From an uncultured Candidatus Poseidoniales archaeon (lineage in GTDB: Archaea > Thermoplasmatota > Poseidoniia > Poseidoniales > Thalassarchaeaceae), in assembly GCA_964645485.1 (NCBI GenBank), contig CAZXZO010000001.1:132161-145767 (forward strand): a stretch of DNA of 13,607 nucleotides, written 5' to 3'. The position numbers were made by a program, and so were the translations under genes. This document shows, in pieces, positions 1 to 13,585 of this stretch. The notes under the pieces are model-generated. The model searched no databases and was not told where the DNA came from. It was given only the letters and a program-made list of their open reading frames with translations. How positions within the stretch are numbered: the first letter of the stretch is position 1; each line of letters starts with the position of its first letter.

Positions 1-40
1 ATGTGGTAGCCCCTTCTAGATGCGAATCCTCGAACTAGCG
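1..40 (-). repeat. Degenerate second copy of the tRNA-Gln 3' end (T-arm, acceptor strand, CCA); att-like scar
   Basis: 1-26 atgtggtagccccttctagatgcgaa matches 118-143 atgtgatagccccttccagattcgaa with 3 mismatches. The minus strand reads CTAG-TTCGA-[GGATTCGC]-AT-CTAG-AAGGGGCT-A-CCA. Confidence 0.75.
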
Positions 41-1388: not shown

Positions 1389-1424
1389 AAGTCGCAAGAA
1401 AAGGTCATCCGCTTTCAAACCCGC

Positions 1425-1634
1425 TCAAGCGCGGAACTGAGCAAGTAGGTCGGCAAGGTCAGCCTCACTTGGTCACAACTCGTCATTCCAAGTTCCCCAA
1501 AGCCTTGTTCAATCGGTCGTAACAGTTCAAGCGCGGAACTGAGCGAGTAGGTCGGCAAGGTCTTGTTCACTCGGTAGTAACAGTTCAAGCGCGGAACTGA
1601 GCAAGTAGGTCGGCAAGGTCAGCCTCACTTGGTC
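1425..1634. repeat. Three copies of the korB 3' end (1425-1474, 1527-1562, 1585-1634), including a 58-bp tandem unit (1504-1561 / 1562-1619)
   Basis: tcaagcgcggaactgagc(a/g)agtaggtcggcaaggtc starts at 1425, 1527 and 1585. The 1425 copy matches the gene for 50 bp. The two 58-bp units differ at 3 positions. Confidence 0.95.
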
Positions 1635-2607
1635 GCAATTGCTCATCCGATAGTTCGGCAAGGGGCGTATCGCACAACTCAAGCATCTCGTCAAGGGTTT
1701 TAGGTTCGGGGTTGTAGTACAACAGTCCAGTCACGTGTCTTTGGTCTTGTTCAGCCTGATGGATTTGCGAAAGAGCGCCCACCGCATCAGTAGGGTCGTG
1801 GTCTCCCCCAATAGTTTCGAGTCTGAGGGTTGAGCCGTCAAACAAAGTGATATCCTTGAATTCACCTTCTGGAACTTCAACTGCCTCAATGGGTTGGAAT
1901 GTAGGGATGTAATCGTATGCATGAAGTTCTGATTGGTTATCTTTCACATATCCATATGAGCGGAATGATTCGTCATTATTGCTGAAAGTTACACACGGTG
2001 ATATCACATCAATTACAGCCGTCCCACGATGGCTGATTGCTGCCTTCAAAATTGAAGTCAACTGCTTCTTTGAGCCGGAAAATGAACGTGCGACAAAAGT
2101 GCAGCCAAGATTGATTGCCATGGCGCACAAATCTATCGGCGGGCTCTCATTTGCATCTGCTTTTCTTTTCTGAGAGCCCTTTTCTACAGTAGCTGAATAT
2201 TGTCCTTTTGTCAGCCCGTAAACTCCATTATTTTCAATGATGTAAACCATGTTTAGATTTCTGCGAATTGCGTGCACAAATTGCCCGATTCCAATACTTG
2301 CAGAATCACCATCTCCTGAAACCCCGATGTAATGCAAATTTTTGTTTGTGACATTGGCACCAGTTGTTACCGATGGCATTCTTCCGTGAAGTGTATTGAA
2401 TCCGTGTGACTTACCTAGGAAGTATGCAGGGGTCTTTGATGAGCATCCAATACCGCTCATCTTGGCGATTTTTTCTGGTTGAACACCATTTTCCCAAGCC
2501 GCATTGATGACAACATTGGATATTTGGTCGTGGCCACAACCTGGGCACAACGAAGATGGTCCACCTTTGTAGTCATCTTTAGGTAAATCAATAATATTCA
2601 ATTTCAA
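1585..2607 (-). CDS. korB: 2-oxoacid:ferredoxin oxidoreductase subunit beta (TPP-binding)
   Basis: Motifs LCPGCGH, GIGCSSKT, TLHGR, GDGD...NNG (TPP motif), YGLTKGQ and SPC. The TTG start overlaps the alpha-subunit stop (TTGA). Substrate specificity cannot be fixed from sequence. Confidence 0.93.
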   Translation of the reverse strand: MKLNIIDLPKDDYKGGPSSLCPGCGHDQISNVVINAAWENGVQPEKIAKMSGIGCSSKTPAYFLGKSHGFNTLHGRMPSVTTGANVTNKNLHYIGVSGDGDSASIGIGQFVHAIRRNLNMVYIIENNGVYGLTKGQYSATVEKGSQKRKADANESPPIDLCAMAINLGCTFVARSFSGSKKQLTSILKAAISHRGTAVIDVISPCVTFSNNDESFRSYGYVKDNQSELHAYDYIPTFQPIEAVEVPEGEFKDITLFDGSTLRLETIGGDHDPTDAVGALSQIHQAEQDQRHVTGLLYYNPEPKTLDEMLELCDTPLAELSDEQLRPSEADLADLLAQFRA

Positions 2608-4652: not shown

Positions 4653-5705
4653 ATGATTCCGAGTGGATTGAAGGAGGCGTGGGAGACTGCTGAGAAGCAG
4701 ATAGACGCTGGTGAATACGATGATGCCTTGAGAACGTTGAGGCAATCTTGGTCGGAACATGGTGATAAGGCTGACCATGCAAATACATGGACTTTAGTCG
4801 GAGATGCAAAACAAGCGATAGCGGAGAGTAGTACCCCCATTAATCGCAAAATGTTACGAGATGCTAGTAATGCTTACAAAAGTGCATTGAAGAAGGATGC
4901 AAAGCACCGTGATGCACGCCGTGCTTCAAATGCTTTGCAAGTAAAAATGGATGGTTTAGGAATTAGAACATCTAGCCTACCAAAAATGATTGACGATGGA
5001 ACTCCGACAATCTATGGATTAGTTGCAATCATGCTAGTTGGAATGCTTCTTTTGACTAGTATCAAGTATATGCCTGAAATCAAGTCGGCACTGCGTCTTA
5101 CTTCGGAGGAATCTTCTGATTGGGATGCAACTCTTGCAATCGAACTTTACCCAGATGCTGCACCAAAAACTGTTGATTCTTTCAAAGACCATTCTCGAAA
5201 TGGTAGATACGATGGGATTGCATTTCATCGAGTGATTGATGGTTTTATGGTTCAAGGCGGTGATATTTCCTGTTCTGCATATCCTCTAACTCAGTCTAGC
5301 ACTGGTTGTAACCCGGGAACCGGCGGATATTCAGCAATTTGGTATGGTCAAGGTGACCAAAGCGACATGACAACTTGGACAATGCCTGACGAATTCAACA
5401 CCGCTTACCGCCATGCACCAGGAATATTGGCTATGGCTAATTCAGGAGCGAATACCGGTGGTAGTCAGTTCTACCTTGTTGACAAAGACAGCACCCCCTC
5501 TCACCTTGACGACAAGCATACTGTTTTCGGAATAGCAACAGATGATAGCACATATCTTGGTAGTTCAATTGGTGGAATTGAGTTGATTGACAAAATGAGT
5601 GAGTTACCAACAGATGAGGGTGATAGACCTTTGAGTCCTCCTTACATTCACAGCATTGAGATAGATGGTAACATGGCTTACATGCACCTAATCTTCCCAG
5701 CCTGA
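4653..5705 (+). CDS. Membrane-anchored cyclophilin-type peptidyl-prolyl isomerase with an N-terminal TPR-like helical domain
   Basis: Cyclophilin motifs IELYPDAAPKTV, FHRVIDGFMVQGGD, LAMANSGANTGGSQFY and HLDDKHTVFG. One TM helix (IYGLVAIMLVGMLLLTSI) follows a helical N-terminus with a TPR-like pattern (AYKSALKKDAKH). Confidence 0.9.
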   Translation: MIPSGLKEAWETAEKQIDAGEYDDALRTLRQSWSEHGDKADHANTWTLVGDAKQAIAESSTPINRKMLRDASNAYKSALKKDAKHRDARRASNALQVKMDGLGIRTSSLPKMIDDGTPTIYGLVAIMLVGMLLLTSIKYMPEIKSALRLTSEESSDWDATLAIELYPDAAPKTVDSFKDHSRNGRYDGIAFHRVIDGFMVQGGDISCSAYPLTQSSTGCNPGTGGYSAIWYGQGDQSDMTTWTMPDEFNTAYRHAPGILAMANSGANTGGSQFYLVDKDSTPSHLDDKHTVFGIATDDSTYLGSSIGGIELIDKMSELPTDEGDRPLSPPYIHSIEIDGNMAYMHLIFPA

Positions 5706-6192
5706 TGTTGCAACATTTTCAGGAATCAATGTTCTTGATTTTCAAGATTCCCGGCTTAATTTGGTAATTCAATTTTATTTTCAAGAATCAATGCTCTTGA
5801 ATTTCATTGAATTCAGACTTGAGGCAACAAGAAATTCGTGATGGCTTTGCAAATATATCTCAGTCCGCTTTAGCGTGAGATTCAAGGAGGTCACCCTCGC
5901 CCCGTGTACTGGGGAGATGGATGAGCGCCGTTACCGAGTTTGAATTGAGTGATGGAAGCACCGGCAATTTCTACTCGTTGCCAGCAAAAGAAGCTGAGTG
6001 GGGAATCTCACTTTCCAATCTGCCATATTCAATCAGAGTTTTGCTTGAAGCGGCCCTCAGAAATCAAGATGGATTTTTAGTCACAGCAGATGATGTCAGC
6101 CGCATCGCAAACTGGAATCCGGAAATGACTCCAACAGAAATCCCATTCATGCCAAGCCGAGTAATTCTACAAGATTTCACCGGCGTTCCAGC
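5613..6192 (+). repeat. 580-bp direct repeat, copy 1 (PPIase 3' end + intergenic + acnA 5' end); copy 2 at 10608-11187
   Basis: Constant offset of 4995 bp (the acnA ATG is at 5921 and 10916). The only differences I found are at 6121, 6134 and 6142. Confidence 0.97.
5705..5800. promoter_or_regulatory. Cluster of palindromes after the PPIase stop: ATGTTGCAACAT and TCA(A/G)GA-N8-TCTTGA-TTT-TCAAGA arrays
   Basis: Perfect 12-bp palindrome at 5705-5716. Half-sites at 5719, 5733, 5742 and at 5781, 5795. The same layout recurs at 7213-7241. Function unknown. Confidence 0.5.
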
Positions 6193-6268
6193 CACAAATT
6201 CAGTAGGAAATGAACAAAATGTACCTCTTACTATTCAATTTGTGGCTGGTGGTGAAAATGAAATTTAA
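5921..6268 (+). pseudogene. acnA': Chimeric ORF: first 91 codons of acnA fused in frame to the last 24 codons of the 7413-9896 protein
   Basis: 5921-6192 equals 10916-11187 (3 SNPs), then a single C at 6193, then 6194 onward equals 9822 onward. The product ends FTGVPA|TNSVGNEQNVPLTIQFVAGGENEI and lacks all aconitase catalytic motifs. Confidence 0.9.
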
Positions 6269-6587
6269 ATCAATTTTCTTAGTCATCACGATGATGCTCT
6301 CCCAACCGATGTTAGCTGGATGTTTTGAACGTTCATCACCAGGTGATGATCACACTTCGTCAATCATACCGAACTTTGCTGTATGTATACAGATTGAAAC
6401 AAATGTATCTGATTGGAGTATTGTACTACCCGCACCACTATACGAATATGAAAATGGGACATTAAGTTATCACCCATTCTTGAATAAACTGGTCAACGAA
6501 AGCGATGTAGAACCAATGATTATTGATGGGCGTACAGTCGAATTTAGTTACCGCAAATATAACCCTAAGTTCACCATTGAATTGTCT
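6194..6587 (+). repeat. 394-bp identical repeat (end of the HExxH gene + constant half of the lipoprotein); partner 9822-10215
   Basis: Offset 3628. No mismatch was found on reading from acaaattcagtagg to gaattgtct. Confidence 0.95.
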
Positions 6588-6929
6588 GAAAATCAGACGA
6601 TGACAATCAATGGAACAGGCTCAGTCTCAGACCAAACATCTGATATAGATAGGCAGGTATGTTCTTCAATCTCAGGAACATTTGCCTTACCAAAATTTAT
6701 TTGGCAAACATTTTGTGTTGATGACGATTGTAATCTAACTTCTATCGAAGTAAAGGTAATTGGAAATATGTCGGGTGCTTATCTAAATGGAATCCTTTCA
6801 GTTCGTGAGGATCCAATAAGAACAGAATTTGCTACTTGCTGGGGCTCAGGGATTTGGTTTCAACCATTTAATATGACACAGAAATATATTACAAGTGACT
6901 CACTCAATTGCACTTTTGTAAAAAGTTGA
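6258..6929 (+). CDS. Putative surface lipoprotein, variant 1
   Basis: Signal peptide MKFKSIFLVITMMLSQPM with an LAGC lipobox. The ATG at 6258 follows GGTGGTGA and overlaps the upstream stop; the ORF-track start at 6210 is less likely. It has conserved Cys residues and many N-x-S/T sequons. Confidence 0.8.
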   Translation: MKFKSIFLVITMMLSQPMLAGCFERSSPGDDHTSSIIPNFAVCIQIETNVSDWSIVLPAPLYEYENGTLSYHPFLNKLVNESDVEPMIIDGRTVEFSYRKYNPKFTIELSENQTMTINGTGSVSDQTSDIDRQVCSSISGTFALPKFIWQTFCVDDDCNLTSIEVKVIGNMSGAYLNGILSVREDPIRTEFATCWGSGIWFQPFNMTQKYITSDSLNCTFVKS

Positions 6930-7119
6930 TTACTGTTTCTTTTTTTTCTCTCGTAGTTGAGATTTATTTTGAACTGCCGACCGATGAGGGTGATAGACCT
7001 TTGAGTCCTCCTTACATTCACAGCATTGAGATAGATGGTAACATGGCTTACATGCACCTAATCTTCCCAGCCTGATGTTGCAACATTTTCAGGAATCAAT
7101 GTTCTTGATTTTCAAGATT
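6906..7119 (+). repeat. 214-bp repeat (lipoprotein last codons + spacer + PPIase 3' fragment + palindromes); partner 10531-10744
   Basis: Offset 3625, with one mismatch (6944 T vs 10569 G). The sub-segment 6983-7119 also equals 5613-5749. Confidence 0.95.
6971..7075 (+). pseudogene. Start-less 3' fragment of the PPIase gene (last 34 codons + stop)
   Basis: Encodes ELPTDEGDRPLSPPYIHSIEIDGNMAYMHLIFPA*, the same peptide as 5601-5705. The first four codons are recoded (GAA CTG CCG ACC vs GAG TTA CCA ACA). Confidence 0.9.
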
Positions 7120-7412
7120 TACAGACCCAATTTAGTAACTAAATTAGAGTTCATTCTTGATATTATTAGGAAGCTTTCCGAACAATTTAACCCCGTATTT
7201 CTAGAATGGTTTTCAAGAACCACCGTGCTTGATTTTCAAGATTTTCTCCCTCAATTTGTTGATTAAGATAGTAGTTTCGTTTGTTATCATTAGTAATAAC
7301 GTTGAGAAATAAATTTGATGAAATTTGTTTTTGAATCTTAAATTACCTCAAGAAAAATTAAATGAAGTACATGGGGAACTTTAATAAATTGCATAATTTA
7401 GTACTGATAATA

Positions 7413-9896
7413 ATGCCAGTCCATAAAGGGTTAATCATCTGCTTGTTTTTCAGCAGCCTTTTCACACCCTTAGTTTCAGCCCAAGGAGATATCTTGTCTG
7501 ATCCAAGTAGTGACAGTAATTTCTCTGAGTTTCTGGAAGGAACGACCTCAACTGATGCAGTTGACCCAATGGGTTGGAATCAATCTATAAATTTAATTGG
7601 AAATTATCCGACGAGAACCATTGATTTGACAGACTCTATTTCATCAGGTTGGTCTTCAACATTATCAACAATCGCTTCACTTGGACGGTCTGCGGAAATC
7701 ATGTATTCCGGTCATGAGAATATATTCTATTTTTCCCAATTGAATTATCTTAACCCTGTTGTTATTTCTAGCGAGCACGACTCTGATGGGTCTGAATTTT
7801 CTCAAATAACACTGAGGAGTAGTTTAGCACTAGGTATTACTATTGATTCAATGTCGTATGAGAAGAAGGCGGTGTTATCTTGTGATAATGACTATCAAGA
7901 TGAAGTGTCTTTTTGCAAACTATTGATTATCCATGAAAACGACAATGAGACAACAAAATTTATTTTCGAAGAGACTAATGTTTCAGGAGATTATATCCAA
8001 AATTTCTCATTGATTAACACAGAAAAAGGAAAAACTAACTTCTCATGTGATGATATAAGTTTGTTTTCAAGCGATGAACTGGAGTCATTTTCAGCCAAAT
8101 CTGTTTTGGATGTAATTAGTTTTGAAGCTTTAGCAACAGGACAATTGAACTGCTTATCGTCAACATCCTCACAAAGTACGACTACCCCAAATATCGAACA
8201 AGACTCCTTATTTCCATACCAGAGAGAGTATCCACTCGTTCGAGTTCTCTTAATTGCCAGTGAGTGGAAAGGTGTCTGGACCTCCAGCAGTAACTTGCCT
8301 TGTATTCTAACGTATAGTCACCAGACAAGTGATACCACTGAATTTCGTTCATCGAATTGCCTCTCAACTAATTTAGAAAATTCTATTGAAGCGATTAGGG
8401 ATTCGGCGGCTTGGTTCATTAGCAAAGGGATATATATTGAGTATAACTTACAAGTTTTATCAACTGTGAGTATAACTGAAGATCCAGAGAGGTTATGTGA
8501 TGGCTCTAGTGATTCATTGAGCAAATGGTGGAAATCCTTCGTAGAAGATAATTTTGACGAATCCTACAAAAGATCTCATGATTATTATGACATCGTGGGA
8601 TTATTGATTGGTTTTGACGAATTTAAAGTTAACAATAATGGAGAAGACGATGAGACATACAAAGCAGGATGCGCAATAGAAGCATCTGTGGAGAAGGATA
8701 TAGGATCTTTTTGGGTTGAATGGACTAATATTATGCCTCTTAAAGTGAATGATGTTCAAAATAAAGAATTGGTTTTAAATCATGAAATTCTCCACACATT
8801 GTCAACATATGAAACCTCTTGGTTTTTTTTCACAAAAGAACCTTTACACGATGACTCAAAGAAGGATTGTACCAATCCAATCATAGATTCTACTGTCGGA
8901 AACCCAACTCATAATCCCAGTTGTTGGAATGATGAAAATAATATTAATTATCGGGATATTGTCTCTTCAACAAAGACAAAAGTGCAGAATCATGCAATTG
9001 ATTGGCTACCCTATAAGAGGATAATTAGATTTGGGCCTGGCGATTCTACTAACTTTGAATATGATGATGCTAGTAATTCATTAATTTCAGATTCTCTGTC
9101 AGTTTCTGAGTTATGGATTGATATTTCACATGAGCCCATAACTATGTGGGTTGATGAGTTTAGATACATTGAAGTTGGTGATTATCCGTTTTCAAAGCGA
9201 CCATTTTATAATTTCCATTACAAACTCGTAGAGAATGAAAATTATGAGACCGTTGTGTTCAGTATCCCATTTTCTGGCCAAGAATCTTATTCAATAACAT
9301 ATGGATCTCGATGCACTTCAACAATAAACGAATTCTTTGCAGGAATTATGGGTGGTATCACAAATTCTCCAAATCAGCCATTTGATACTTGGTTAGGCTA
9401 TGCATCTAATTATATTCGTGATGGAAAGGATTCAACCATTTATCATTCTAATAGTGAATGGATCTCGTTACCGGTTGATTGTAACAACCCTGCTTATGAA
9501 GAAAGAACCCCTTATGTTTTCGAATATAATTCGGGATTTATTACATCAGTGTGTGGGTTAACCACTCAAGAACCATTTGCATATAAAGTCTGTAAAGATG
9601 GTTCACCAACATTATCTAGAATCAAAAATGATGGTGGTTCAGGCGACCCGATTTCATGGAAAAATCTTGATGTATCAGAAACGAGTGCTCTTCAATATAT
9701 CATGATTTGGCCAGCCTATGAAGTGCAAAACCCCGACGGTTCTATTCGATGGGGAATATACAATTGGAATTCAATTACATATACTCAATGGGACTATACT
9801 GAATTGTTTGTTTCATATAATACAAATTCAGTAGGAAATGAACAAAATGTACCTCTTACTATTCAATTTGTGGCTGGTGGTGAAAATGAAATTTAA
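7413..9896 (+). CDS. Large secreted hypothetical protein with an HExxH zincin motif (putative metallopeptidase)
   Basis: Signal peptide MPVHKGLIICLFFSSLFTPLVSA|Q if started at 7413; the ORF is open from 7362. HEILH lies at 8781-8795, preceded by DIVGLL and AGCA segments. The protein is Ser/Thr/Asp- and Cys-rich. Confidence 0.75.
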   Translation: MPVHKGLIICLFFSSLFTPLVSAQGDILSDPSSDSNFSEFLEGTTSTDAVDPMGWNQSINLIGNYPTRTIDLTDSISSGWSSTLSTIASLGRSAEIMYSGHENIFYFSQLNYLNPVVISSEHDSDGSEFSQITLRSSLALGITIDSMSYEKKAVLSCDNDYQDEVSFCKLLIIHENDNETTKFIFEETNVSGDYIQNFSLINTEKGKTNFSCDDISLFSSDELESFSAKSVLDVISFEALATGQLNCLSSTSSQSTTTPNIEQDSLFPYQREYPLVRVLLIASEWKGVWTSSSNLPCILTYSHQTSDTTEFRSSNCLSTNLENSIEAIRDSAAWFISKGIYIEYNLQVLSTVSITEDPERLCDGSSDSLSKWWKSFVEDNFDESYKRSHDYYDIVGLLIGFDEFKVNNNGEDDETYKAGCAIEASVEKDIGSFWVEWTNIMPLKVNDVQNKELVLNHEILHTLSTYETSWFFFTKEPLHDDSKKDCTNPIIDSTVGNPTHNPSCWNDENNINYRDIVSSTKTKVQNHAIDWLPYKRIIRFGPGDSTNFEYDDASNSLISDSLSVSELWIDISHEPITMWVDEFRYIEVGDYPFSKRPFYNFHYKLVENENYETVVFSIPFSGQESYSITYGSRCTSTINEFFAGIMGGITNSPNQPFDTWLGYASNYIRDGKDSTIYHSNSEWISLPVDCNNPAYEERTPYVFEYNSGFITSVCGLTTQEPFAYKVCKDGSPTLSRIKNDGGSGDPISWKNLDVSETSALQYIMIWPAYEVQNPDGSIRWGIYNWNSITYTQWDYTELFVSYNTNSVGNEQNVPLTIQFVAGGENEI

Positions 9897-10554
9897 ATCA
9901 ATTTTCTTAGTCATCACGATGATGCTCTCCCAACCGATGTTAGCTGGATGTTTTGAACGTTCATCACCAGGTGATGATCACACTTCGTCAATCATACCGA
10001 ACTTTGCTGTATGTATACAGATTGAAACAAATGTATCTGATTGGAGTATTGTACTACCCGCACCACTATACGAATATGAAAATGGGACATTAAGTTATCA
10101 CCCATTCTTGAATAAACTGGTCAACGAAAGCGATGTAGAACCAATGATTATTGATGGGCGTACAGTCGAATTTAGTTACCGCAAATATAACCCTAAGTTC
10201 ACCATTGAATTGTCTAACAATTTGACGATGACCATACGTGGGGTTGACTCAGTATCGCATGACATGGGTCCAAGTTATGAAGCCTGCTCGCACATTAGGG
10301 GGACATTTACTTTGCCAAAATTTATCTGGCAGACTGTATGTATTGAAGAACATTGTAATCAAATTCCTCTCAAGGTTATACTTGACGATGATAGTCCCTC
10401 AGCTTATCTGAATGGGGTTTTATCGGTGAGTGGAGGATTTGTAAACACTGAATATGCTAAATGCGCAGGCTCAGGTATTTGGTTGGAACCATTGAATTTG
10501 ACACAGGAATATGTTAATAGTACCCAGCTTAATTGCACTTTTGTAAAAAGTTGA
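9886..10554 (+). CDS. Putative surface lipoprotein, variant 2
   Basis: Same signal peptide, LAGC lipobox and first 110 codons as variant 1. The ATG at 9886 follows GGTGGTGA and overlaps the upstream gene's stop by 11 nt. Confidence 0.8.
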   Translation: MKFKSIFLVITMMLSQPMLAGCFERSSPGDDHTSSIIPNFAVCIQIETNVSDWSIVLPAPLYEYENGTLSYHPFLNKLVNESDVEPMIIDGRTVEFSYRKYNPKFTIELSNNLTMTIRGVDSVSHDMGPSYEACSHIRGTFTLPKFIWQTVCIEEHCNQIPLKVILDDDSPSAYLNGVLSVSGGFVNTEYAKCAGSGIWLEPLNLTQEYVNSTQLNCTFVKS

Positions 10555-10595
10555 TTACTGTTTCTTTTGTTTCTCTCGTAGTTGAGATTTATTTT

Positions 10596-10700
10596 GAACT
10601 GCCGACCGATGAGGGTGATAGACCTTTGAGTCCTCCTTACATTCACAGCATTGAGATAGATGGTAACATGGCTTACATGCACCTAATCTTCCCAGCCTGA
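10596..10700 (+). pseudogene. Second start-less 3' fragment of the PPIase gene
   Basis: Identical to 6971-7075, including the recoded ELPT codons. Confidence 0.9.
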
Positions 10701-11187
10701 TGTTGCAACATTTTCAGGAATCAATGTTCTTGATTTTCAAGATTCCCGGCTTAATTTGGTAATTCAATTTTATTTTCAAGAATCAATGCTCTTGAATTTC
10801 ATTGAATTCAGACTTGAGGCAACAAGAAATTCGTGATGGCTTTGCAAATATATCTCAGTCCGCTTTAGCGTGAGATTCAAGGAGGTCACCCTCGCCCCGT
10901 GTACTGGGGAGATGGATGAGCGCCGTTACCGAGTTTGAATTGAGTGATGGAAGCACCGGCAATTTCTACTCGTTGCCAGCAAAAGAAGCTGAGTGGGGAA
11001 TCTCACTTTCCAATCTGCCATATTCAATCAGAGTTTTGCTTGAAGCGGCCCTCAGAAATCAAGATGGATTTTTAGTCACAGCAGATGATGTCAGCCGCAT
11101 CGCAAACTGGAATCCTGAAATGACTCCAGCAGAAATTCCATTCATGCCAAGCCGAGTAATTCTACAAGATTTCACCGGCGTTCCAGC
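10608..11187 (+). repeat. 580-bp direct repeat, copy 2
   Basis: Matches 5613-6192 except at 11116, 11129 and 11137. It continues into the intact acnA. Confidence 0.97.
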
Positions 11188-13585
11188 AGTCGTTGACATT
11201 GCGGCGCTCCGCGACGCAATGGTCCAATTAGGCGGCAACCCACAAAAAGTCAACCCGCAAGTTCCAGTCGACCTAGTAATTGACCATTCAGTTCAGGTCG
11301 ATTTTTCGGGTCTTTTCCCCGACGCGCGTGAGCGCAATTTGGAGATTGAGTATGAGCGAAACATGGAGCGGTATCAGTTTCTAAAGTGGGGCCAGCAGAG
11401 CCTTGACAATTTCCGTGCGGTACCTCCGGGAAGGGGGATTGTGCATCAGGTAAATCTCGAGTGGATTGCCAGTGTGGCGCGCCAAGAAAAAGGGGTTTGG
11501 TTGTGCGATTCTTTGGTCGGTACTGACTCTCACACCACGATGATAAATGGCTTGGGTGTTTTAGGTTGGGGGGTCGGCGGAATTGAGGCTGAAGCGGTGA
11601 TGCTCGGCCAGCCGATTTACATGCTTTTACCAGAAGTTGTTGGCTTTGAATTGACCGGCTGTTTGCAGCCGGGGGTGACTGCAACTGATATGACTTTACG
11701 AATTGTTGAGATTTTGCGAAATCATGGATGTGTTGGAAAATTCGTTGAATTTTTTGGGGACGGTCTAGCCAATATGACGCTACCTGACCGGGCCACGATT
11801 GCTAACATGGCGCCCGAATATGGAGCGACATGTGGATTTTTCCCAGTTGATGAAACAACTCTAGATTACATGCGGCTTTCAGGTCGGGATGAAGAACACA
11901 TCGAGAATGTGAAGCGATTTATGACCGCTCAAGGTATGTTCCTGACAGCTAATTCTCCTGACCCTGACTTCACATCGGTTTTGAGATTGGATTTGGGTTC
12001 AGTTGAGCCGGCTTTGGCGGGGCCAAAACGGCCACAAGATTTGGTCAATTTGAGCGAAATGAAAGAGCATTGGGTGGAGAGTTTGACCGCTCCACTTGGG
12101 CATCAAGGTCATGGGCTTGATACTAGCGAAGTTGATGTAAAAATTGACGTTGAAGGCGAAGATTTCTGCTTAACACATGGCGATGTGGTGATTGCTGCAA
12201 TTACGTCTTGTACTAATACCTCAAATCCGTCAGTCATGTTGGCGGCGGGACTAATTGCCAAGAAAGCCAATGCGCTTGGGATGAATATCAAACCCTGGGT
12301 GAAGCCGAGTTTAGCACCGGGGAGTAGGGTTGTAACTGAATATTATGATGCGGCTGGGCTTACCGACGATTTGGCGGCTTTAGGATTCAATAATGTTGGA
12401 TACGGATGTACAACTTGTATCGGAAACTCGGGTCCGCTTGCGGACAATATTGAGTCAGCAATTGAATCTGGAAATCTGATTGTTGGAAGTGTGATTTCAG
12501 GCAACAGAAATTTTGAAGGTAGAGTCCATCAAAAAGTCAAGGGCAGTTATCTTGGTAGCCCACCATTAGTAGTCGCTTATGCATTGGCGGGCACACTCAA
12601 CATTGATCTTCAGAATGATGCATTAGGTCAAGATTCAGATGGAAACGATGTTTTCTTGGCCGATATTTGGCCGACAGATGCAGAAATCCAAGCAACTATT
12701 GCGACTTCAATCAGTCCAGAAATGTTCCAAGAAAGATACTCTGATGCAACCGATGAGCCGCGCTGGAATGCAATCCCCAGTGAGGCTAGCGACCTATACC
12801 CTTGGCAAGAAGATTCTACTTACATTCGTCTGCCTTCATTCTTTGAAGGGATAACTCCTGAACCAGCGCCAATTCAAGAGATTAGTGGGGCCAATGTCTT
12901 ACTGATGTTGGGTGATTCCACGACTACAGACCACATCTCGCCTGCAGGAGCATTTCCACATACCGGCCCGGCCGGAAAATATCTGATGGATAACGGTGTA
13001 AAACCGCGCCATTTCAACTCGTTTGGTAGCCGGCGCGGCAACCACGAAGTGATGATGAGAGGTACTTTTGCCAACGTCAGAATCCGCAATAAAATTGCAC
13101 CAGGAACCGAAGGCGGATATACAACATTCTTCCCGACAGGAGAAGTAACTTCAGTCTATGAGGCAAGCATGAGGTACCAAGAAGCAGGCACGCCTCTAGT
13201 AGTCCTCGCTGGCTCGCAGTACGGCACTGGAAGCAGTAGAGACTGGGCAGCAAAAGGAACACTTTTACTCGGCGTAAAAGCGGTTATCGCTACATCATTT
13301 GAGAGAATTCACCGCTCAAATTTAGTCGGTATGGGGGTACTTCCCCTGACCTTTATTGAAGGGCAAGACCCAGAAGTTTTGGGGTTGGACGGAAGTGAGA
13401 CATTTGATATTCCTGCGCATGGAGAATTTGAACCCATGAGTGAGATGACCGTGACCGCACACAAGGCTGATGGGACAAGCATCACTTTCCAGACAATCGT
13501 AAGACTAGATACACCTGTTGAAGTGGACTATTATGACAACGGGGGAATCCTCCAAACCGTTTTAAGGAACCTCGCTCAAGAATAG
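10916..13585 (+). CDS. acnA: Aconitate hydratase A (AcnA/IRP family), full length 889 aa
   Basis: Motifs SRVILQDFTGVP, DLVIDHSVQVD, GTDSHT, ITSCTNTSNP, GYGCTTCIGNSG (three Fe-S Cys), GNRNFEGR, TTDHISPAG and YGTGSSRDWAAKG. Confidence 0.98.
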   Translation: MSAVTEFELSDGSTGNFYSLPAKEAEWGISLSNLPYSIRVLLEAALRNQDGFLVTADDVSRIANWNPEMTPAEIPFMPSRVILQDFTGVPAVVDIAALRDAMVQLGGNPQKVNPQVPVDLVIDHSVQVDFSGLFPDARERNLEIEYERNMERYQFLKWGQQSLDNFRAVPPGRGIVHQVNLEWIASVARQEKGVWLCDSLVGTDSHTTMINGLGVLGWGVGGIEAEAVMLGQPIYMLLPEVVGFELTGCLQPGVTATDMTLRIVEILRNHGCVGKFVEFFGDGLANMTLPDRATIANMAPEYGATCGFFPVDETTLDYMRLSGRDEEHIENVKRFMTAQGMFLTANSPDPDFTSVLRLDLGSVEPALAGPKRPQDLVNLSEMKEHWVESLTAPLGHQGHGLDTSEVDVKIDVEGEDFCLTHGDVVIAAITSCTNTSNPSVMLAAGLIAKKANALGMNIKPWVKPSLAPGSRVVTEYYDAAGLTDDLAALGFNNVGYGCTTCIGNSGPLADNIESAIESGNLIVGSVISGNRNFEGRVHQKVKGSYLGSPPLVVAYALAGTLNIDLQNDALGQDSDGNDVFLADIWPTDAEIQATIATSISPEMFQERYSDATDEPRWNAIPSEASDLYPWQEDSTYIRLPSFFEGITPEPAPIQEISGANVLLMLGDSTTTDHISPAGAFPHTGPAGKYLMDNGVKPRHFNSFGSRRGNHEVMMRGTFANVRIRNKIAPGTEGGYTTFFPTGEVTSVYEASMRYQEAGTPLVVLAGSQYGTGSSRDWAAKGTLLLGVKAVIATSFERIHRSNLVGMGVLPLTFIEGQDPEVLGLDGSETFDIPAHGEFEPMSEMTVTAHKADGTSITFQTIVRLDTPVEVDYYDNGGILQTVLRNLAQE

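Follow-up and report, generated by a model that had tools for sequence, protein, structure and literature searches.

The 13,607-nt stretch of DNA considered here (the window; GenBank assembly GCA_964645485.1, contig CAZXZO010000001.1, positions 132,161 to 145,767) comes from an uncultured Candidatus Poseidoniales archaeon and raises the question of whether the 3' end of an ordinary protein-coding gene can act as a landing pad for incoming gene cassettes. For uncultured archaea of Marine Group II, the type that this organism fits, the ways in which accessory genes are acquired and rearranged are poorly understood. In the window, a gene for a cyclophilin-type peptidyl-prolyl isomerase (PPIase) and the aconitate hydratase gene acnA are separated by an islet in which the PPIase 3' end recurs as a repeat (T). 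Three copies of T delimit two units: U1, with gene B1, and U2, with genes C and B2. An earlier sequence-only reading, made without database searches, interpreted these units as a cassette array docked at the PPIase gene. The locus is instead an ordinary island shaped by recombination and not a new cassette-capture system. Specifically, we consider it probable, if by no means certain, that an old, lineage-restricted C-B islet between PPIase and acnA was shaped by recombination, conversion, and local duplication. The locus provides a clean, multiply assembled example of a site in three states (empty, one unit, and two units), and it appears to illustrate how tail repeats shape an island, together with gene conversion and a duplication that put a surface-lipoprotein paralogue under a housekeeping promoter.

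The repeated PPIase tail and the site in relatives

The source genome (G000) is a 1.94-Mb, 82%-complete assembly of 55 contigs, and the window (G000:C1:132161-145767) is one contig inside a scaffold. Scaffolds of this genome contain 100-N gaps with exact 55-nt overlaps on either side, both ends of the window being such gaps, which indicates that the assembler was run at k = 55. As a caveat, an assembly of this type draws repeats longer than k as identical by construction. Many exact 55-nt repeats spaced 155 nt apart in G000 (e.g., C1:82148, C1:132006, and C1:145713) are unmerged contig overlaps and not biology.

Contigs from assemblies that are independent of this metagenome-assembled genome (MAG), namely two ENA assemblies with k141-named contigs plus one JGI contig, reproduce the arrangement. 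L060 and L141 (4.8 kb) are colinear and run from the acnA fragment (acnA') across position 6193 into B1, ELPT-T, C, B2, ELPT-T, and the spacer, where ELPT denotes the four codons that precede T. They differ from the window by one single nucleotide polymorphism (SNP) in T copy 3 and by a diverged 5' half of B2. L151 and L152 begin in korA, pass through PPIase and T, and reach the native spacer, ending at 5768. In our own reading, the contigs stop at points where the few SNPs that separate the repeat copies force a k = 141 graph to branch. The sequence-only reading held that the array would fall if its junctions (6982/6983 and 10607/10608) were not spanned; contigs of independent assemblies cross both. 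The block array and the recoding of ELPT are thus real, with the junctions reproduced by independent assemblies. As a rough hint only, the depth of B1-, B2-, and C-specific words in contigs of three sequencing runs is similar to that of PPIase. These run contigs were assembled at k = 31, too short to bridge the 137-bp T, and the joints found in them were limited to the variant block of B2 and a spurious match of 21 nt (marine run).

The three T copies are identical over 137 bp, are spaced by 1370 and 3625 nt, and include the last 31 PPIase codons; no further copy was detected anywhere in the 1.94-Mb genome. Immediately before copies 2 and 3 the sequence reads GAACTGCCGACC, whereas the functional gene reads GAGTTACCAACA; 5 of 12 nt differ, and all of the differences are synonymous. 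The sequence-only reading had described both the triplication and the recoded ELPT before copies 2 and 3, and it was correct on both counts according to the sequence and the independent contigs. Because the chance that 12 random bases encode ELPT is only ~1e-5 (our own arithmetic), this edge reflects real homology; upstream of these 12 nt, no similarity to PPIase was identified. The tail copies are thus genuinely homologous to the 3' end of PPIase. Their identity over 137 bp resembles a tract of gene conversion within an older tail duplication, with ELPT as its unconverted edge.

The recoded edge had earlier been taken to indicate that the tail came from a different PPIase allele. A parsimony reading would assign about three of the five ELPT differences to the lineage of the functional gene, where only synonymous changes survive, and in that case a foreign functional allele is not required. 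Moreover, the pseudo-tail of G011, the closest species (PPIase identity of 95%), has the same edge and is nearest to the close clade.

TABLE 1. Features of the window and tail-repeat loci elsewhere in the source genome. Coordinates are window positions unless prefixed by a contig name.
Feature	Coordinates	Strand	Remarks
PPIase gene, cyclophilin type	4653..5705	+	350 aa; N-terminal membrane segment; Pfam PF00160, E 1.9e-34
T copy 1	5613..5749	+	final 93 nt of PPIase and 44 nt past its stop; native spacer next in L151 and L152
580-bp repeat copy 1	5613..6192	+	T, PPIase-acnA spacer (acnA promoter region), acnA codons 1-91
Two tandem 62-nt units	5716..5839	+	each opens with a TTTT-hairpin motif (TCARGA-N8-TCTTGA)
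Chimeric 115-codon open reading frame	5921..6268	+	acnA codons 1-91, junction codon, last 23 codons of gene C
Illegitimate junction base	6193	+	unlike acnA (A) and gene C (T); also in L060 and L141
B1	6258..6929	+	lipoprotein paralogue rich in Cys; LAGC lipobox at the end of the signal peptide
Diverged ELPT edge before T copy 2	6971..6982	+
T copy 2	6983..7119	+	leads into the sequence 5' of gene C; spanned by L060 and L141
Gene C	7362..9896	+	844 aa; secreted or membrane-anchored; conserved HEILH motif; only here and in G011
B2	9886..10554	+	orthologous by position to the only B gene of G011
Diverged ELPT edge before T copy 3	10596..10607	+
T copy 3	10608..10744	+	start of 580-bp repeat copy 2
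580-bp repeat copy 2	10608..11187	+	T copy 3, spacer, 5' end of intact acnA
acnA, intact aconitate hydratase gene	10916..13585	+	889 aa; Pfam PF00330, PF00694
tRNA-Gln	124-196	minus	repeat pair, window 1-26 vs 118-143
Tail-repeat loci, examples (genome-wide scan)	C1:97221, C3:12325, C3:102604, C13:3811, C17:18993, C46:1797, C2:58150

PPIase orthologues were identified in 38 of the 41 genomes searched (source genome counted). As the sequence-only reading had suggested, comparison of the PPIase-acnA interval across relatives reveals a variable site, which is empty in 17 relatives (16 from the same genus and one from another), holds one unit in G011, and holds two in the source genome. At the empty sites acnA follows PPIase after 61–126 nt, and in none of the 17 was a tail duplicate detected downstream of PPIase. 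C and B were found only in the source genome and G011 (41 genomes, 5.8 billion proteins, and 1.8 billion cluster representatives), and no relatives of either were found in viral contigs. The GC content of the islet is 36–39%, as compared to 44% for the genome.

The order in G011 is PPIase-T-C-B-tail'-spacer-acnA, where tail' denotes the distal tail copy; it is encoded on a 46-kb contig and is colinear with U2, with 82% identity over ~3.7 kb. This tail' starts with KLPTDEG, at the same edge as ELPT in the source genome, and extends ~45 nt beyond the stop. It is frameshifted and is 76% identical to window positions 5604-5705. Its identity is 68–73% to close-clade tails and 57–64% to distant ones. 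A distant-clade origin of the distal tail, suggested by three residues (E.PT, GD, and PA-stop), was rejected given that overall identity is highest to the close clade. The shared edge and layout in G011 therefore suggest that the tail-copy bracket is one old event common to both species. The distal tail copy appears to be dispensable, with decay evident in G011 and apparent homogenization over 137 bp in the source genome.

The acnA gene itself is a mosaic, in which the first 180 nt are ~77–79% identical to all relatives and the sequence from about 11280 onward is ~97% identical to that of G004, a genome whose PPIase and korA are only ~80–89% identical to those of the source genome. This suggests that between-species recombination is common at the PPIase-acnA locus.

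Two further contigs end or diverge near the first 62-nt unit. A contig from run X1 matches the window until 5781 and then continues into unrelated sequence (TACATGCTTTTGG...), which was not found in 21 genomes of the genus and whose 30-mer was unmatched in viral contigs. A 96%-identical contig from a 2024 marine run (X4) ends at 5783. These contigs may come from a further strain whose content differs beyond the first 62-nt unit.

Unit U1 and the two B genes

The repeat map of the sequence-only reading was accurate in its T blocks and yet incomplete, given that it overlooked repeats of 580, 394, and 214 bp. The two copies of the 580-bp repeat (5613-6192 and 10608-11187) differ by three mismatches, at 6121, 6134, and 6142. 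Positions 6194-6587 equal 9822-10215 (394 bp; the last 23 codons of C and the 5' half of B), and 6906-7119 equal 10531-10744 with one mismatch (214 bp). Overall, 6194-7119 is approximately equal to 9822-10744. U1 is thus an exact circular permutation of 9822-11187 that is built from these three repeats. What had been taken for an incoming cassette instead combines U2's right end with the native flank downstream (the spacer plus 91 codons of acnA), and the two parts meet at the single junction at 6193.

No microhomology and no homology to either side was detected at junction 6193, and the reading frame is retained across it. The resulting chimeric open reading frame (ORF) ends in a TAA stop that overlaps the start of B1 by 11 nt, as C does with B2, and GGTGGTGA lies upstream. 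The likely start of B1 is the one at 6258, after GGTGGTGA, although a longer ORF begins at 6210. As is characteristic of a segmental duplication, U1 permutes nearby sequence and is joined by one novel junction. Collectively, these observations indicate that U1 is not an independent cassette but rather a partial duplicate made locally, and homologous recombination at the repeat most likely put it in place. The placement of B1 behind a second copy of the acnA promoter may represent promoter capture. We also asked whether the G004-like acnA tract begins at the U1 breakpoint (11187) and rejected this possibility, since that tract begins near 11280.

The block at 9948-10152, within the 5' half of B2, carries its own strongly diverged sequence in L060 and L141, and the B1-type and B2-type versions of this block each have approximately single-copy word depth in the three runs. 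The shared blocks that flank the variant region (126 and 63 nt) both exceed k = 55. Since the independent contigs differ, the depths are single-copy, and the shared blocks exceed k, the 394-bp identity between B1 and B2 in the window is probably a mis-threaded path, or assembly chimera. Assembly of metagenomes at k = 55 can in this way invent identity between paralogues. The divergence values given below for B use the form of B2 in the independent contigs.

B1 and B2 are 65% identical at the amino acid level. Synonymous divergence (dS) between them is 0.92 in two variable blocks (vs 0.74–0.86 to B of G011) and 0.12 in the constant blocks, and their flanks differ at 3 of 580 positions. Such a mosaic of near-identical and diverged blocks is what conversion would be expected to produce.

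Proposed history and competing explanations

We infer the following order of events, including the conversion, the promoter capture, and the origin of the first tail duplication, from the arrangement of the blocks. A direct duplication of ~35 codons and ~45 nt from the 3' end of PPIase, ancestral to G011 and the source genome, would have come to flank the C-B islet on both sides. This first duplication may have arisen through a circle with a captured tail, a recombinase event, or insertion into a pre-existing tail-plus-spacer tandem repeat. The tail copies would have been made identical, or nearly so, over 137 bp via gene conversion or crossing-over. A 1.37-kb segment comprising the last 23 codons of C, B, a tail copy, the spacer, and acnA codons 1-91 would have been copied, with the non-homologous join at 6193 closing this segment (9822-11187) into a 1.37-kb circle and a homologous crossover in T copy 1 inserting the circle beside PPIase. 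This route to U1 is the shortest one; the same product would arise if, after a tandem duplication, the C-B unit were excised and re-inserted through T. B1 would thereby have come under a copied acnA promoter, preceded by a leader ORF in which acnA' and C' are fused in frame and which keeps the native stop/start overlap (translational coupling). Conversion would keep the constant blocks of B1 and B2 and all flanks alike, while the two variable blocks remained strongly different. The tail repeats would function as portable homology for the general recombination machinery and not as a demonstrated recombinase site.

Several observations weigh against this history. The variable blocks of B1 have diverged from B2 as much as either has from B of G011, and therefore either U1 is old and its flanks were heavily homogenized by conversion, or the variable blocks of B1 were imported from another allele, each of which adds steps. 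Synonymous divergence between the source genome and G011 is 0.31 for C, 0.74 for PPIase, and 1.37 for acnA, and the low value for C hints that the islet could have moved between lineages after they split, an exchange not expected from strictly vertical descent, although AT-rich codon usage, or a composition effect, may also depress it. The right edge of T is the end of a locus-specific hairpin motif with three half-sites (6-nt arms and an 8-nt loop), which resembles a recombinase site. In addition to the copies in the tandem 62-nt units, this motif occurs at 7086, 7210, 10711, and 10773, with all six genomic matches at the PPIase-acnA locus; it may serve as a terminator or bind a protein. Finally, short-read graphs cannot separate an integrated form from a 4,995-bp circle plus an empty site across a 580-bp repeat.

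The proposal of the sequence-only reading was that the PPIase tail is att-like and that U1 and U2 are cassettes added serially by a recombinase encoded elsewhere, each of which brought the tail of a former host. Empty, single, and double occupancy across relatives speaks for this model, as do the direct repeats derived from the target's 3' end, whose left edge coincides in the two species. The hairpin motif at the right edge of T and the low synonymous divergence of C, which hints at later exchange, also favor it, and serial integration is known from the tycheposon islands of marine picocyanobacteria, where cargo-only remnants retain partial target copies and later arrivals push earlier ones inward (bioRxiv 10.1101/2020.12.28.424599). 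The genome encodes one tyrosine recombinase (PF00589), on contig C2, and no match to a serine recombinase (PF00239) was identified in this 82%-complete genome. However, no tyrosine or serine recombinase domain was identified among the ORFs of the window, consistent with the absence of an integrase that the sequence-only reading had already noted there, and the island of G011 holds only C and B and no integrase. U1 contains native spacer and acnA codons and permutes local sequence, and the distal tail of G011 is decaying and nearest to the close clade. No other cargo was detected in the 41 genomes, in protein databases, in viral contigs (where a T-specific 25-mer also had no match), or in the only metagenome contig that this 25-mer did match. 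An insert between korB and an AKR gene in G011 likewise lacks a tail repeat. The variable occupancy and the true homology of the tails were therefore borne out, whereas an independent U1, a recombinase, and alternative cargo were not, and we regard serial capture at an att-like site as rather improbable. It is somewhat less improbable, although still unlikely, that the tail duplication came first, as a local tandem repeat, and that the C-B islet landed later between the copies through an unrelated insertion, in which case the repeats would have played no part in its arrival. Nine other loci in the genome contain a stop-containing gene tail and short spacer that are repeated 2–3 times downstream (periods of ~45–91 nt and longer), while a genome-wide scan identified zero comparable duplications that span start codons; this bias of tails over heads could stem from filtering by selection or from a genuine mechanism. 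The frequency of local tail duplications in this genome also counts in favor of the history proposed above. The array at korB is confirmed by the independent contig L149, and the spacers beside T are themselves composed of tandem 62-nt units. Nevertheless, this order of events requires two independent events at one spot, and none of the 17 relatives with an empty site has the tail duplicate that it would predict.

The boldest extension of these models is that gene-tail repeats are general landing pads, with tail-bounded units that circularize and re-insert at any tail copy by means of a trans-acting recombinase or very efficient short-homology recombination. If true, this would imply integron-like, additive, and reshufflable arrays at the ends of protein-coding genes, and the nine other tail-repeat loci would be empty arrays; we view it as a long shot. 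Least probable, in our view, is that the array is an assembly artefact or that the islet exists as a separate circle of 4,995 bp while the chromosomal site is empty. The repeats exceed the k of the k = 55-type assembly behind the MAG, and the B1-like 5' half of B2 was not reproduced elsewhere, with each version at single-copy word depth. Yet, apart from the trivial interior of the 580-bp repeat, all junctions are crossed by independent contigs (k141-named ENA and JGI), the islet of G011 is integrated on its 46-kb contig with diverged repeats that cannot be mis-threaded, and a 4,995-bp circle would carry no replication gene.

The favored history of an old islet remodeled by recombination can be compared with known systems, and the locus shows how a tidy repeat pattern can mimic a cassette system. 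In its layout, the locus resembles an integrative element reduced to its cargo, with partial copies of the target at its flanks. As in integrase-driven islands, the locus has direct repeats derived from the target, an intact target, and empty sites in relatives. In contrast to such islands, it has no tyrosine or serine recombinase in or beside the element, its repeat is long (~150 nt originally, of which 137 nt are now identical), and its second unit is built from local sequence that includes part of the downstream gene. Several units at one site are a property shared with integrative-element arrays. Integrative and conjugative elements (ICEs) can undergo tandem accretion with defective elements. 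Protein-coding integration targets are also known, one example being dusA (PMC4482086). Campbell-type integration, or duplication with conversion, leaves repeats that flank the added segment and represent the shared homology, one novel junction without homology, and paralogue mosaics of identical and diverged blocks, all of which are observed here. The direct repeats of Campbell-type integration could also pop the unit out again, and here we infer a circle intermediate and RadA. The likeness to integrons is only pictorial, in that promoterless-looking head-to-tail units end in the same repeat. IntI, attI, and attC were not found at this locus (the attC model was not applied to the hairpin motif), the repeat is the tail of a coding gene, and one unit has its own promoter copy and a fragment of a neighboring gene. 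The locus is not an integron.

Cargo genes, other gene-tail repeats, and neighboring features

No Pfam matches were obtained for C, B1, or B2, even at an E-value of 10. The N-terminus of C has a hydrophobic, signal-like segment, and its HEILH motif is kept in both species. Leads that would link C to zinc peptidases are weak and feature-based (Atlas feature scores of only 0.77–0.80), and an AlphaFold model of C was unusable (predicted local distance difference test score, pLDDT, of 30). The Atlas model of B had a pLDDT of 0.36, and all structure matches were below a template modeling (TM) score of 0.35. As expected for lipoproteins, B1, B2, and B of G011 share MKFKSIFLVITMMLSQPMLAGC (motif inspection only) and conserved cysteines. 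We propose that C is a secreted HExxH protein and that B is a lipoprotein that is translationally coupled to C.

The genome contains other repeats at gene ends. The tail of korB is present in three copies with a 58-nt tandem unit (window 1419-1646, minus strand, korB to AKR), which L149 confirms at 99.9%. At the same spot, G011 has an insert of ~770 nt that encodes a PIN-domain (VapC-like) gene and a small upstream ORF; whether this insert is flanked by a korB tail copy was tested, and no tail repeat was found there. At the contig edge, a diverged partial copy (88%) of the 3' end of tRNA-Gln lies 117 nt downstream of the gene.

The sole tyrosine recombinase gene of the genome (C2:25768-26280) sits amid several short repeats (C2:23087-26280). 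On the same contig, a tRNA-like 3' end (GGTTCGAATCCTGCTCCCTGCA) at C2:58150-58650 is accompanied by a 181-nt repeat 319 nt downstream. A genuine integrated element may be present here, in the region of the recombinase and the tRNA-like repeat.

A conserved GC-rich element (CCACCC..GCCCCG-N8-GGGG) was identified at ~10870-10915, just 5' of the acnA start, in every relative examined, and it is duplicated in U1 at ~5875-5920. This element may be a leader or a regulatory hairpin.

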